A stretch of 64,000 nt of DNA from Eledone cirrhosa (GCA_964016885.1 OZ024741.1:171616001-171680000); one strand, 5' to 3'; shown: positions 12,411 through 53,385, counted from the stretch's first letter. Program-made: numbers and translations. The notes: generated by a model not told the origin, from the letters alone.

Positions 12411-12458
12411 ATGCAAATTAGGCTGCTCAGCCATTAATATGCATAAGGGAAGTATATA
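12411..12458 (+). promoter_or_regulatory. Octamer-TCAGCC-TATA cassette upstream of a hammerhead (copy 1 of 3)
   Basis: ATGCAAAT at 12411, TCAGCC at +16, TATATA at +42; same spacing at 53170 and (+43) at 18938. Confidence 0.55.
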
Positions 12459-12493
12459 CTTTCAGACGTTCAATTATCTGGCAGGAAGGTATA

Positions 12494-12534
12494 CGGTGCT
12501 GACAATAGTTAATAAACTTGAAACTAGTACATCG
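12494..12534 (+). ncRNA. Degenerate type-I hammerhead (G8 to A)
   Basis: CGGTG-CTGACAA-TAGTT.AATA.AACTT-GAAA-CTAG-TA-CATCG; stem I pairs and stem III is palindromic. Confidence 0.7.
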
Positions 12535-12974
12535 TTTCTTTGTCAGTGTTGAACAAAAGGGCAACGATGGTTGTTAAACACTGTACGGCTTAATTCGGGA
12601 TGTTTGTTTACAAACAAACCAAGCATTATAATAAATGTTCGGTAAATCCAAACGTACATATATATATGTGTGCATATATGTATATATATACATACTACTG
12701 TACGTCTGTATACATATATGTATGTACGTATACATACTTATATATAACAATATGACTCCCCCAAATATAACAATATTTGTTTCAACACACAATTTCATAT
12801 AAAAAACCTTGCAAAACAAATATATATATATATATATTTAAGAGTTAAACAAGGTTCAATGAATACATCAAAGAATGAGTTTTACAATAGATTGGAAGCA
12901 TTCAACAGTAATTTTCCAGAGTTATTAATATTAATTCAAAATATTAACAAAATAGATATTTTTGTGATCAATTA

Positions 12975-13041
12975 TATTTTATTATACATATTTCAGAGGT
13001 ACTGAGTTAAGTTCAACAGTACGTCCTCATCAGATAAAATA
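12975..13041 (-). ncRNA. Type-I hammerhead inside an inverted-repeat element (~12840..13145)
   Basis: Minus strand TATTTTAT-CTGATGA-GGAC.GTACTG/CAGTAC.CTCT-GAAA-TATGTA-TA-ATAAAATA; flanked by ~47 bp inverted arms (12924..12971 and 13098..13143). Confidence 0.88.
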
Positions 13042-13288
13042 AAATGATACATGACATACCCTGACATAGTAGATGGTTAAGATTCAATCTACCTTGATTG
13101 ATCACAAGAATATCTATTTTGTTAATATTTTGAATTAATATTATATATATATATGCAGAGGTTATATTTAATTTGTTGGGATTCAACAAGCTTAAATGTT
13201 TTTATAACTGATATAAAGCACTCAACAGTTTAATGGAGTAAATACACAATATATTAATAAATGGAAAGTATATTTATAAAACCATATT

Positions 13289-13356
13289 TATTTTATTATA
13301 TATATATTTCAAGGGCGACCAAGGTAAATTATGGTGTGCTTTCATCAGATAAAATA
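13289..13356 (-). ncRNA. Type-I hammerhead, same subfamily as 1933..1997
   Basis: Minus strand TATTTTAT-CTGATGA-AAGCACACC...GGTCGCCCTT-GAAA-TATATATA-TA-ATAAAATA; host element ~13155..13435 is the reverse complement homolog of 1853..2125. Confidence 0.82.
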
Positions 13357-13542
13357 CAGATTTGTTTTATAAATAAATATTGACATACCTGGAAAAAAGA
13401 CAACCTTAACGGTTGAAATTTGCTGGATAGTATCCAACAAGAAATTTGCTGGATACTATGATGATGATATATATATCATCATCATCACCATGCTTGCATG
13501 GCAGATGGACGTTAAACAAAGATGATGATGATATATATATAT

Positions 13543-13898
13543 ATATATTAGATATTAGTATAACAATGATAATAATAACAAAGGCAAGTTATTTTACATA
13601 TTCCTTTCATTGTTTTACGATCGTTTCAGAGGGTTGATCATATCGATAAATTGACTGATTTATAGCAGTTAGAGAACTGTATACTATCAGACATAATACA
13701 TTATTTCCGAAGAGGACAGTATGATTGGACCTATATATTATGTTTGATAGTATACAGTACTCTAACTTCTATAGAGCAATCAATATATCAATATATCAAT
13801 ATGATCAACCCTCTGAAATGATCGTAAAACAATAAAAGGATATGTAAAATAACTTGCCTTTGTTATTATTATCATTGTTAAACTAATATCTAATATAT
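13543..13898. repeat. Long imperfect palindrome with a hammerhead-like motif (extended stem II)
   Basis: ~155 bp arms. Plus strand TTT-CCGAAGA-GGA...TCT-GAAA-TGATCG-TA-AAA; the other arm gives GAAA-CGATCG-TA. Confidence 0.75.
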
Positions 13899-49879: not shown

Positions 49880-50182
49880 TAAATCCCACCCTGGTTAACT
49901 TTACTTTTCATCTTTACCGGGTCAATAAAATTAGGCACCAGTAATAAACTGAGGTAATTGCTGACCTTGTGCCAAAAGTAGAAACAATTATTTGATAGGT
50001 GGATTGGCAGTATCGGTAGAGGATTGGATGCTATGCTTTGCAGCTGAGTTACGGCCCTTTACAGTCTGAGTTCAAGTCCTGCTGAGGTTAACTTTGCCGA
50101 CATCCTTACGGGGTCGATAAAATAAAGCACCAGTAATGTACTGGGATAATTGCTGGCCTTGTGCCAAAAGTAGAAACAATTA
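49880..50182 (+). mobile_element. Two tandem SINE family A copies (partial then full)
   Basis: Core and tail occur twice; A/B boxes in the second copy. Confidence 0.85.
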
Positions 50183-50274
50183 TCAATATTATGATAATGA
50201 TAAAAATAAAGGTAGTACTAGTTGTTTTTAGTCCCAGGTGAGGTCTGATTGAATAAACCTAGTGATGGTGGTCC

Positions 50275-50775
50275 TACTTTGGGTCAAGTTGCTAGGAGTA
50301 ATTTTAATAGTGATAGCAGAAATCACCTATGGTATGAATTCTCTGTGTCAATACTGAGAACTATATTTAATTTGTTCTATGCCTAGAAGGAAAGTTGGCT
50401 GGTAAGAGAAGCAGAAGTTGGCAGCCAAAACGATGGCTTGATAATGTCAACTTATGGACTGGACTTGACCGTTGCTCTTTAACCCTTTAGAATTCACATT
50501 ACTCTACATATGCTATTGTATTTTCATGGTAAAGGCTTTATCTCACATAATTATTTCACATAATATTGAATCTGAGATTTTGATATTATTTATTTTGAGA
50601 ACAATACCTGAATGCCAATAAGAGTTATGGCAGGTTTAAACAGAAAGAGGTGAGATAATTCTGGCCAGATGTGGCTGGTTTAAATGCTAAAGGGTTAAAC
50701 TGTGCTGTTGGTGATCAAACATTGTGGAGAAAGATATATCATGTTGAGGCGCAGTCTGCAACTAGCGGAGTTTAG
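50275..50775 (+). mobile_element. Old RTE-like 3' fragment interrupted by a TTAA MITE (50483..50694)
   Basis: EGKLAGKRSRSWQPKRWLDNV..WTGL joins across TTAA to ...GDQTLWRK; MITE TIRs CCCTTTAG/CTAAAGGG. Confidence 0.7.
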
Positions 50776-51794
50776 CTTCTGGAGGATGCCATACCTAGTA
50801 CAGAAACCCCACACTCTTTCTGTCTCTGTCTCTATTTTTATGCTGTCACTCCAATGAAGATGCATGGTTTAGAGTTTAGGGTATTCCACTCACAATTGTT
50901 AGACTGAGTTCAATTCCTTGTGACATGTTGTGTCATTGAGCAAGACAGTGCATTTCATGTTGCTCCAGTTCATGCAGCTGGCACAGTGTCAAGCTGAATC
51001 TCCCTGAGAATCATGCTAAGTGTGCATGTGTCTGTAAAATACTCAGCAACATGCATGTATATTATGATCATTTATGCATTCTTTTTTATGTTGCCATGGG
51101 CAGGACAGATCATCATAGACTAAGTCATTAATTAATCAAAGCTACTGTACTCTTAGAGAAGCCAGGGACTGCCTTGCTTAATATGTTTTAATTTTTGCAT
51201 GGGTTGTATGGGTGTGTGATCTTTCTAATACCAACCACTTTACAGAATGTACTTGGTTCATTTTATCGTGACTACCAGTGGAAGAGATGTTATTGAGTTC
51301 TTGAATTAACTGATAATTTTTTTCAAACTTATGCTATTAGTGTTCAAAGGCCAACCACTATGGAGTATACTAAATGTATCATGTAAATTACTTTGTCAAA
51401 GAACAAACGTGATTATGTGATTCCGATTGATAATAAAAGGTAAAGTCTTAATTACACCAAACAGATATGTATATGATTATATATATATATATATATATAT
51501 ATATATATATATTACTGTGTAGTAAAAGACTGATAATTTTTTTATAGAAGCCAGTACAATGTGGTAGAAAAATACGAAGGACAAATGATGACAAATATAA
51601 CAAAACAAAACAAAGTAATGTTTTACCCAATGTATTTTAGCATGGCATTTCAGTTACCAAGCTGAAACAGTCCAAGACAAAACAAATGGGCAATCAGAGC
51701 TTTCTTTTCTCACTGGTTTATGTGTTTGAAAAATGCATTCACATGTGTGGGGTTCATACAGTAACCATTCTGCCTCGTGCATTTATGACCAATT

Positions 51795-52260
51795 ATTTAT
51801 CCCTGGTTTTATTCGACTGATGAAAACAGCTTCCTTAATCCTTAACTTTCCATATTCCTTTCAGTCAGCTCTATGCTGAGCTCAATGTTTGGTTGCAGCA
51901 TCTGTCAAGATGTTTTTAACAGAAGAGACACTCATTGTCACATGTTCCTTGATCTGTATGCGTAACCTCTTTATGGTTAACCAATATGAGGAGATATATT
52001 TATTGATCGTATAAACAACATATGCTCTCGTGTATACGTCAGCATTGTTGATGCGATAGTTAAGTAGTGTGCATATATTGCTGCATGTTGGTTGGTGTAT
52101 GTGGAGCAGTCTCCTCAGTGAGTGTCCCGGGTATGCCAACCATATATTCAATCACCCCCTTGGATAGCTTATCTGATGGCAGCTGTCATCTTTTTATTGA
52201 AATGTAGCAGCTTTGGGTAGCATATGTTATCCTTAGGGGCACACATTCACCTTCTTTTAC
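51795..52260 (-). pseudogene. Degraded Penelope-like GIY-YIG endonuclease region
   Basis: VVYTI...TIKRLRIQIKEH, then LRIKEAVFISRIKPGINN in a shifted frame. Confidence 0.7.
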
Positions 52261-52289
52261 ATGTTGCTGCATTGGGATTTTGGTGTTAC

Positions 52290-52692
52290 ATCATCATCAT
52301 CATCATCATAAACGTTTTACGTCCGTTCATCCACGCTAGCATAGGTTAAAAGGGTTGTCCTGCTGTGGACAGTGGTTGGTCGGCTGACCTTGTCTTGCTC
52401 ATACGGGAACTGATTCTGGCTTGATTTCTACAGCTGGATGCCCTTCCTAACACCAACCTCATTTACAGTGAGTGCTGGGTGCTTTTTTTTCCATGGCGCC
52501 TACACGTCCACTTTACAGTGTGGGCTGGGTGCTTTTTTGCCATGGCACCTCCACGACCACTTTGCAGTGGAATGATAGGGACTCCAGTCCTCTCATCTCA
52601 TTTCTGCAGCTGAGTAAACTGGAGCAATGTGAAATAAAGTGTCTTGCTCAAGGAAACAACACATCACACAGTCCGAGAATTGAACTCACAAC
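52290..52692 (-). mobile_element. SINE family B variant with the long tail of the 18.0-18.3 kb RTE 3' UTR
   Basis: Core as family B; tail ...GCTAGCGTGGATGAACGGACGTAAAACG. Confidence 0.85.
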
Positions 52693-52929
52693 CTATATAT
52701 ACATAATTATACATACACACCCACACATATGCATATATATATATATATATATATATATGATGGAATCTCCTGTCAATTCATACACACACAAACAAATATA
52801 TATATATATATATGTGTGTAGGAAAAGAGTCAAGACCCCAACGGCTGAGCTCCGGCCATTTCGACAGCTAGATCCAAACTGAATTATATATATATATATA
52901 TATATATATATATATATAATTAGAATCGG

Positions 52930-53385
52930 GTCGTTTGTTTATAATGAATTGAACATTGTTATTAATGTTCGATATAACCCATACATACATATGCATATGT
53001 ATATGTGTGTGCATGTATATATGTATATATGTGTGTGTATGTATATATATATATATATGTGTGTGTGTACGCGTGCATATTTACATTTATGTATCAGCTG
53101 TGCTAGGGCAAGAAATAAAATTCTAATTTCCTTTTTAATTTTGGCAAGGCCAGCGGTAACTCGCTCGGTATGCAAATGACGCTACTCAGCCGATGTGTAC
53201 TTAAGAAATATTATATATTTTCAACCATTCAAGAGACTGATGATGGGTAATAACCCAGAAACATGTTGATTGTTCCTGAAAGCCAGTGTTGAACAAACAG
53301 GTGACGATTTGGTTTGTTTACAAACAAACCAAACATTATCATTAATGTTCGATATAACCCATACATTCATATGTATATGTATATA
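52930..53385 (+). mobile_element. 380-bp promoter-hammerhead unit with terminal direct repeat
   Basis: attaatgttcgatataacccatacat at 52961 and 53341; ATGCAAAT 53170, TCAGCC 53186, TATATA 53212, hammerhead core 53237..53267; homologous to 12385..12660. Confidence 0.75.
53228..53280 (+). ncRNA. Hammerhead with intact core and weak stem I
   Basis: CTGATGA-TGGGT.AATA.ACCCA-GAAA-CATG-TT; perfect stem II, palindromic stem III. Confidence 0.72.

Follow-up and report, generated by a model that had tools for sequence, protein, structure and literature searches.

Hammerhead retrozymes in the octopod Eledone cirrhosa and their candidate promoter of host small nuclear RNA gene type

The window considered here is a stretch of 64,000 nucleotides from the genome of the octopod Eledone cirrhosa (GCA_964016885.1 OZ024741.1:171616001-171680000). 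It contains several short units in which a promoter-like cassette precedes a hammerhead ribozyme. In its complete form the cassette consists of a 12-base element that includes an octamer, a hexamer and a TATA-like box (Table 1). An earlier note on this DNA had described three such cassettes, and their spacing was confirmed, with octamers at 12411, 18938 and 53170, the hexamer 16 bases further on in all three and the TATA-like box 42, 43 and 42 bases on. The direct repeats reported for two of the units were re-measured and have periods of 336 bp (18772/19108) and 380 bp (52952/53332). By itself the octamer shows no enrichment in the window, with 9 occurrences against an expected 7.5. Alignment indicates that the three loci are diverged homologues, hence not independent occurrences, and two minus-strand relatives that the earlier note had overlooked have octamers at 22150 and near 28812. 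Judged from their sequences, the window copies are dispersed, decayed members of a large protein-free family of hammerhead retrozymes.

Units in the window and across the genome

The hammerhead cores at 12499, 19033 and 53237 begin 46, 52 and 25 bases past the start of the TATA-like box. Changes such as G8A, A9G or the loss of a stem I arm impair hammerhead cleavage. The first two window ribozymes each bear one such substitution (G8A and A9G, respectively); the one at 53237, compared with intact relatives, has a deletion of about 24 bases that took away the 5' arm of stem I, so that it fails the hammerhead descriptor. The presence of a hammerhead after each cassette thus holds at all three loci, but none of the window copies can be considered cleavage-competent, all three ribozymes being damaged; in young families, by contrast, the hammerhead is intact (descriptor and alignment). 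An Rfam scan of the window gave no hammerhead family at E<=1, only microsatellite-driven microRNA noise.

Table 1. Retrozyme units, cassettes, hammerheads and Penelope-like sequences in the window.
Feature	Position	Strand	Remarks
Family F1 unit	12377..12743 (approximate limits)	+	Single copy, 5'-truncated; TA repeat at 3' end
Cassette 1	12410..12458	+	12-base element 12410-12421, hexamer 12427-12432, TATA-like box 12453-12458
Type I hammerhead	12493..12535	+	Core 12499-12505, G8A; predicted cut after 12529
Terminal-repeat piece of coding Penelope-like family A	12748..12820	+	Nested in TA repeat
Family F2 unit	18772..19164	+	Period 336 bp, terminal redundancy 57 bases
Cassette 2	18937..18986	+	12-base element 18937-18948, hexamer 18954-18959, TATA-like box 18981-18986
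Type I hammerhead	19027..19069	+	Core 19033-19039, A9G; predicted cut after 19063
Family F8 unit	21846..22200 (approximate limits)	-	Octamer 22150-22143; TATA-like box 47 bases on, as in U6 geometry
Hammerhead trace in F8 unit	22044-22038	-	Half core, from sequence
Family F6 unit, decayed	28500..28850 (approximate limits)	-	12-base element from 28813 with 2 mismatches
Hammerhead trace in F6 unit	from 28724	-	Core, from sequence
Family F3 unit	52952..53410	+	Period 380 bp, terminal redundancy, internal deletions
Cassette 3	53169..53217	+	Octamer 53170-53177, hexamer 53186-53191, TATA-like box 53212-53217
Hammerhead core plus stems II and III	53237..53267	+	Stem I without its 5' arm (deletion)
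Coding Penelope-like element, family B, 5'-truncated	53405..55530	+	Separate neighbour of F3 unit, no cassette
Parts of family B element		+	Inverted terminal repeat ~53405-53800; broken reverse transcriptase-endonuclease frame 53790-55128; terminal repeat with a hammerhead of its own, core 55335

The searched genome amounts to 3.0 Gb, and the family names F1 to F8 were coined in this analysis. The octamer and hexamer at cassette spacing occur in 25,545 genomic copies, as against one for the reversed control; most belong to F1 (unit 420–500 bp), and 1,457 have a base other than T after the octamer and lead to further families. F2 (unit about 335 bp), F3 and F5 are represented by 1,322, 2,368 and 293 candidates, respectively. 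F4, found via its ribozyme (9,513 copies, none in the control; unit 466–470 bp), retains the 12-base element and a TATA-like word and lacks the hexamer. F7, found in a blind census (3,963 copies, none in the control; unit 310 bp), can be aligned to F2 over the whole unit; the octamer element is gone in all five loci read, and a one-base variant of the first four bases of the hexamer is kept, 27 bases ahead of the TATA. In F8, a candidate relative of F1 to F7, the element lies 47 bases ahead of the TATA and the hammerhead about 105 bases on, a spacing pattern with 519 genomic matches (47 in the control). The earlier idea of an obligatory three-part cassette is not supported by F4 and F7, and the octamer–TATA spacing of 42–43 bases extends to F1–F6 but neither to F8 nor to F7, which has no octamer.

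Units span 310–502 bp, occur in arrays of 2 to 30, including tandem units of which at least two have complete hammerheads, and each contain a type I hammerhead. They share no protein-coding frame (one array has short microsatellite-derived frames only) and show no long terminal repeat (LTR), primer-binding site (PBS) or polypurine tract (PPT), though no search was aimed at PBS or PPT. F1, F2, F3, F5, F6 and others align across cassette and ribozyme with a mean column identity of 47% (28 representatives), the octamer region and the ribozyme core being the most constant parts. In a blind sample of 800 kb, composed of pieces taken at even steps (L322–L401), a cassette-free profile gave 35 matches, which would extrapolate to a superfamily on the order of 100,000 pieces genome-wide; the profile was trained on known families and misses unlike ones, F7 having been missed by it and found by the descriptor census alone. 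The 12-base element is present at the expected place with at most one mismatch in 19 of the 26 matches covering the profile start; in the other seven it has been shifted by deletions (two), the unit is 5'-truncated (four) or the copy has decayed (one). Exact 12-base elements in the same sample belong to units in 17 of 19 cases (0.16 for shuffled words). Among BLAST-picked copies, 24 of 29 for F2 and 11 of 24 for F3 have the element with at most one mismatch, and many of the others are truncated.

The blind sample also yielded 67 hammerhead descriptor matches (about 250,000 by extrapolation to the genome), many of which represent further families with a long stem II, often in head-to-head pairs without a cassette. 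One subfamily (L048 and L051, around 1500) has the octamer module tandemly duplicated ahead of the cassette, like an enhancer repeat, and further old hammerhead units combining the 12-base element with a different downstream sequence (L430, L431) possibly represent more families.

The cassette and the genes for host small RNAs

The octamer is part of a 12-base element common to the units and to host small RNA genes. The upstream 100 bases of host gene loci were compared (L170, L171, L172, L242, L249, L286, L287; L182–L221, L250–L257, L280–L285). With zero or one mismatch, the element lies at −76 to −79 in these genes, with the TATA at −30/−31 and a spacing of 46–48 bases; it was found in four of ten U6 upstream contexts, the best of six U6atac matches, the single RNase MRP gene and both selenocysteine transfer RNA (tRNA-Sec) genes examined, against a background of 9 in 100,000 four-register windows. 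The promoter-less U6 (5) and U6atac (5) matches look like pseudogenes, and in one U6 group the element has been displaced by an insertion. In several tandem-cluster U6 genes (L176, L181), a short interspersed repeat lies between the upstream element and the gene and should silence them.

The first four bases of the hexamer recur at −56 to −58 in the genes for the small nuclear RNAs (snRNAs) U1 (6/6 tabulated), U2 (4/5) and U4 (2/3), and in U1 this word lies 26–27 bases ahead of the TATA, as in the cassette. U1, U2 and U4 do not have the 12-base element; U3 has a two-mismatch version of it at −73, with a spacing of 42 (3/6), and it is absent from the genes for RNase P, which has the U1/U2-type word and no octamer, and for the signal recognition particle RNA, which has neither. 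Host type 3 genes of RNA polymerase III (Pol III) and host snRNA genes of RNA polymerase II (Pol II) use different upstream words, RNase P going with the U1/U2 type. U1, U2 and U3 have TATA-like boxes at about −30, a pattern not known from vertebrate genes of these types. An AT-rich word at about −90 is present in most host U1/U2 genes, and inspection of the units by eye, unscored, gave no clear counterpart. In 13 of 17 representatives a C-A step falls at +29 to +31 from the TATA, a weak and non-independent sign of a start there.

From these comparisons, F1–F3 appear to join a U6-type element, moved by 4–5 bases, to a U1/U2-type word, with F4 having the first only and F7 the second only. Because the 12-base element and the four-base word match host snRNA-type genes, a built-in snRNA-type promoter is likely, and the cassette is predicted, with fair assurance, to be a working promoter. 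Pol II is slightly favoured over Pol III as its polymerase, because unit-length RNA must cross runs of 4–7 T, which are present in every unit.

Several observations tell against a promoter. No examined host gene combines all three parts of the cassette, and the octamer–TATA spacing of F1–F6 (42–43) is that of no examined host Pol III gene (46–48), F8 alone having the latter. At 35% GC, words resembling a TATA box turn up often, and the match to the four-base word was chosen post hoc, for a short motif that is weak alone. The apparent conservation of the octamer is inflated by the discovery of several families through it; F4 manages without the hexamer, and F7 is young and abundant despite having no 12-base element. 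Moreover, both motifs lie in RNA hairpins (z<=−2 in 12/28 and 18/28 representatives, as against 0/7 host promoters), and RNA structure accounts for part of their conservation. Structure alone is nevertheless insufficient, because the 12-base element remains constant while its hairpin partner alters in sequence and register. A supposed second, inverted octamer was rejected as a fixed feature: the 3' arm of the hairpin resembles such an octamer in F1 and F4 and not in F3, and is read as hairpin pairing.

The units are also predicted to be strongly structured as RNA. Folded as circles, they gave z scores of −7.4 to −11.2 relative to shuffled sequences (4/4), with a three-way hammerhead junction included; an internal microsatellite adds to these scores. 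In one insertion with two arms, of 12 and 6 complete units, no unit of the 18 differs from the others, and its sole private changes in the 295-base scored segment are three A>G changes in the octamer. In F4, 17 of 31 private changes on the sense strand are A>G, as against 3 T>C (p 0.003; 21 independent insertions), and they are spread over 9 of the 21 insertions; the Penelope coding-frame control gave 12 A>G and 15 T>C. This excess and the identical 18-unit insertion would fit editing by ADAR of paired RNA that is copied round a circle. On the other side of the balance, two insertions supply 8 of the 17 F4 changes, the skew is borderline in F1a (9 vs 2, p 0.07) and not repeated in F1b (2 vs 1), F1c (2 vs 2) or F7 (0 vs 0), and other arrays are mixed (19 unit types in 30 units, 11 in 14). 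DNA contigs over F4 have 4 A>G and 0 T>C among 6 variant places, too few to serve as evidence; among the sequencing runs listed as containing the sequence none was recorded as RNA, and the one possible RNA run contained nothing matching F1 or F4. A candidate young family without octamer and TATA (locus L109/L157) was rejected, as it turned out to be a single array bearing A>G changes.

The strongest competing explanation is that these are retrozymes without a working promoter, the cassette being kept as hairpins of the circular RNA or as a protein-binding site, the promoter words being a relic of the founder and the RNA arising by host read-through. The hairpins over both motifs, the success of F7 without an octamer and the destruction of the octamer in two fresh arrays speak for it, as does a review stating, in the part consulted, that animal retrozymes seem not to harbour promoters (PMC7761336). 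We consider it rather doubtful: across families with about 47% likeness the 5' arm stays identical to the letter while the 3' arm varies in both sequence and register, the 12-base element also stands before host Pol III genes of four kinds, which form no hairpin, the spacing to the TATA is fixed, and the destroyed octamers differ by A>G only, as edited offspring would.

Slightly less credit is due to a U6-type Pol III promoter giving a short RNA that ends at a T run near the 3' end of the unit, with full units arising by occasional read-through, which we judge unlikely. The 12-base element is indeed that of host Pol III type 3 genes, F8 has the exact spacing of U6, F4 has the element without the U1/U2 word, the 3' ends of insertions fall a few bases past T runs, and the hammerhead repeats of Schistosoma appear to be transcribed by Pol III (PMC6765202, in the part consulted). 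Nevertheless, F1–F6 are 4–5 bases short of that spacing and F7 retains the Pol II-type word only; if a Pol III RNA ended at the T run, the promoter would be missing from it, but most insertions have the promoter, and the 3' ends lie beyond the T run rather than within it.

Insertion marks and probable Penelope-like partners

Units occur singly, with terminal redundancy or in tandem, and in almost every case their 3' ends are joined to TA repeats. Terminal units could be scored in 62 cases: 29 stop 32–37 bases short of the place of the next octamer, for 4 the alignment breaks off at 41–46, 21 end at 91–102, 6 run into another cassette and 2 end elsewhere. A further 20 units, outside this count, had no match for their tails. 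Opposite-strand neighbours among the first 100 matches are head-to-head in seven cases and tail-to-tail in none, and 8 of 11 complete F7 clusters have a two-armed head-to-head arrangement. Penelope-like elements are known for 5' truncation, partial tandems, an inverted 5' copy, microsatellite targets and hammerheads (PMC8557442, in the part consulted). The TA-repeat 3' ends and the tandem and head-to-head arrays suggest that the units insert like Penelope elements. They are very probably retrozymes mobilised by Penelope machinery, the partner enzyme being a deduction.

Candidate partners abound: 45,934 candidate Penelope-like coding elements were found, 56 of the 60 top matches being stop-free, with up to about 1,200 amino acids, together with 150 GIY-YIG matches in the genome. 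The coding sample comprised the best 30 + 30 loci of many thousand, and cassette or unit sequence was joined in sense behind the frame in none of the 30 reverse transcriptase (RT)-matched and none of the 30 GIY-YIG loci (seven sequence groups). The terminal repeats of these sampled loci bear other hammerheads, and only one of 89 unit loci matched any of the four query proteins, on the opposite strand. Two results count against the proposed explanation: no coding partner with sequence in common with the units was found, and Pfam gave no GIY-YIG match on proteins of the family A and B types. We take families A and B to be Penelope-like from their architecture and motifs, Pfam giving only a weak RT match on one relative. 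The family B element in the window sits in the TA repeat at the end of the F3 unit and is about 90% identical to open copies elsewhere; its best protein relative is from Octopus vulgaris (63% identity).

The earlier proposal of a non-autonomous hammerhead retroelement lacking open reading frames (ORFs) is supported by the frameless arrays and by these Penelope-type marks, namely TA-fused 3' ends and head-to-head arms. Its alternative, in which the units are solo or tandem pseudo-long terminal repeats (pseudo-LTRs) of a coding Penelope element, found no support in the 60 coding loci and is very improbable. Vertebrate retrozymes do derive from pseudo-LTRs (bioRxiv 10.64898/2026.07.22.740005, in the part consulted), a coding element abuts the third window copy, and only the best loci of many thousand were sampled; the missing sense junctions, the different hammerheads, the near absence of protein matches and frameless arrays of up to 30 units argue the other way. 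As far as the sample reaches, its sequences indicate that the units are non-autonomous and not terminal repeats of any coding family in it. Amplification as satellite DNA, at the level of DNA and with no role for the ribozyme and promoter words, might explain some period-2 or mixed arrays and one old, diverged array, but the insertion marks (constant 3' ends at TA repeats, truncation at the 5' end, arms placed strictly head-to-head) largely refute it, and it sits badly with strand-specific A>G changes and with hammerhead stems kept by different sequences, so that hardly any likelihood is left to it.

Other mobile sequences lie nearby. At L158 (3221-4531 and 8003-8221), an F1 array lies in the middle of the 5' inversion of a Penelope-like element of a third family, which has an open frame remnant of 436 codons. 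The window also contains fragments of frames of LINE-type reverse transcriptases (16230-18019, 869-1447, 5255-5878, 29719-31167; family assigned by eye), a minus-strand frame of 510 codons resembling a pogo/Tigger-type DDE transposase with a helix-turn-helix start (23240-24772, by eye), and weak tRNA-like Rfam matches (19452-19509, 27799-27856, 40281-40338, 55876-55933), probably heads of short interspersed repeats.

Known relatives, a proposed cycle and its meaning

The earlier note knew of no such family from cephalopods. That the kind itself is new finds no support: animal non-LTR retrozymes tied to Penelope elements have already been described (Cervera and de la Pena 2020, PMC7229834; Li, Clavereau and Pollet 2026, bioRxiv 10.64898/2026.07.22.740005), in sources whose consulted parts make no mention of cephalopods. 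As in those retrozymes, the units are low-GC, ORF-free and tandem, a few hundred bases long, with one type I hammerhead and a highly paired predicted circle, and co-occur with Penelope elements; another shared trait, reported for HHR_Amex2 of axolotl, is a U-U mismatch at the base of stem II, and circularisation of retrozyme RNA by a host ligase has been shown in coral, mussel and axolotl (PMC7229834, consulted parts). They differ in having a conserved promoter-like block that matches host snRNA genes (cf. PMC7761336, consulted part) and in having no sequence link to any examined coding pseudo-LTR.

Unlike Penelope-like elements with pseudo-LTR hammerheads, the units have no RT-endonuclease frame, and the cassette is missing from the repeats of the sampled coding families. 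The promoter of schistosome hammerhead repeats is derived from tRNA. Newt satellite 2, the subject of a 1994 paper by Coats, Zhang and Epstein, is reported to use octamer-containing promoter elements of snRNA type. That repeat, a hammerhead sequence of about 330 bp, has an internal snRNA-type promoter driving Pol II (as cited in PMC2220036 and PMC6765202, consulted parts) and is a precedent for the present units, in which, unlike in the newt, the mollusc's own U6-type and U1/U2-type words are packed into a compact 50-base block that varies by family. The SINE-like hammerhead repeats of Schistosoma also have a promoter and then a hammerhead in tandem units, and their single copies stop spreading (PMC6765202, consulted part); the upstream snRNA-type block sets the octopod units apart. 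The plant LTR retrozyme NbRZ1 likewise has its own promoter, mapped there, but has a type III hammerhead, an LTR/PBS/PPT structure and a Ty3-gypsy partner (PMC12029980, consulted part). Octopus hammerheads are not mentioned in the searched main text of PMC13282606, an octopus repeat annotation, or of PMC5680766, and a literature search, mostly of the main text of non-subscription papers, turned up no report of retrozymes in cephalopods, of promoters in them or of marks of editing. The class and the promoter precedent are thus known, and the match to the host's own snRNA-gene elements adds to them.

The units carry the 12-base octamer element, the four-base U1/U2-type word and the TATA-like box about 45–55 bases ahead of a type I hammerhead. 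Under the proposed cycle, host snRNA-gene factors would start transcription about 30 bases past the TATA, at the 5' edge of an extended stem I, and the ribozyme would consequently remove the 5' end, with the promoter of the next unit inside the monomer. In a tandem array, two hammerheads would excise one unit holding that promoter, a host ligase would close it into a highly paired circle, and ADAR would edit some of its paired adenosines. Penelope endonuclease and RT would then prime at TA repeats; copying would begin at either of two AT-rich points in the unit and proceed around the circle, in many cases at both cut ends, to yield head-to-head insertions that exceed unit length or comprise several units. 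Insertions of this kind would again place a promoter in front of a complete unit, and single copies, the ones in the window among them, are predicted to be dead ends. Taken as a whole, from promoter through self-cleavage, circle and editing to Penelope copying, this cycle seems on balance the better bet.

A broader scenario is more tentative, and in full it may well not hold. Octopod retrozymes would have captured host promoter parts, first in an older family with U6 geometry and later with the element moved by 4–5 bases, the U1/U2 word added and a switch from Pol III to Pol II, either part sufficing in single families; the promoter would travel in circular RNA as hairpins and be edited by ADAR, and rolling-circle reverse transcription would write the edits into the genome, disabling the promoter of the offspring.

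For animal retrozymes, a cycle has been proposed in which two steps are still open, their transcription and their copying back. As a by-product, the upstream elements of host U6-type and U1/U2-type genes have been defined, for which our literature search, mostly of non-subscription papers, found no cephalopod report, and which are useful for guide-RNA expression in cephalopods. The superfamily scatters a candidate promoter word across the genome, and the 50-base promoter candidate, the natural family-level knock-outs (F4, F7 and F8) and the fresh uniform arrays make both steps directly testable.

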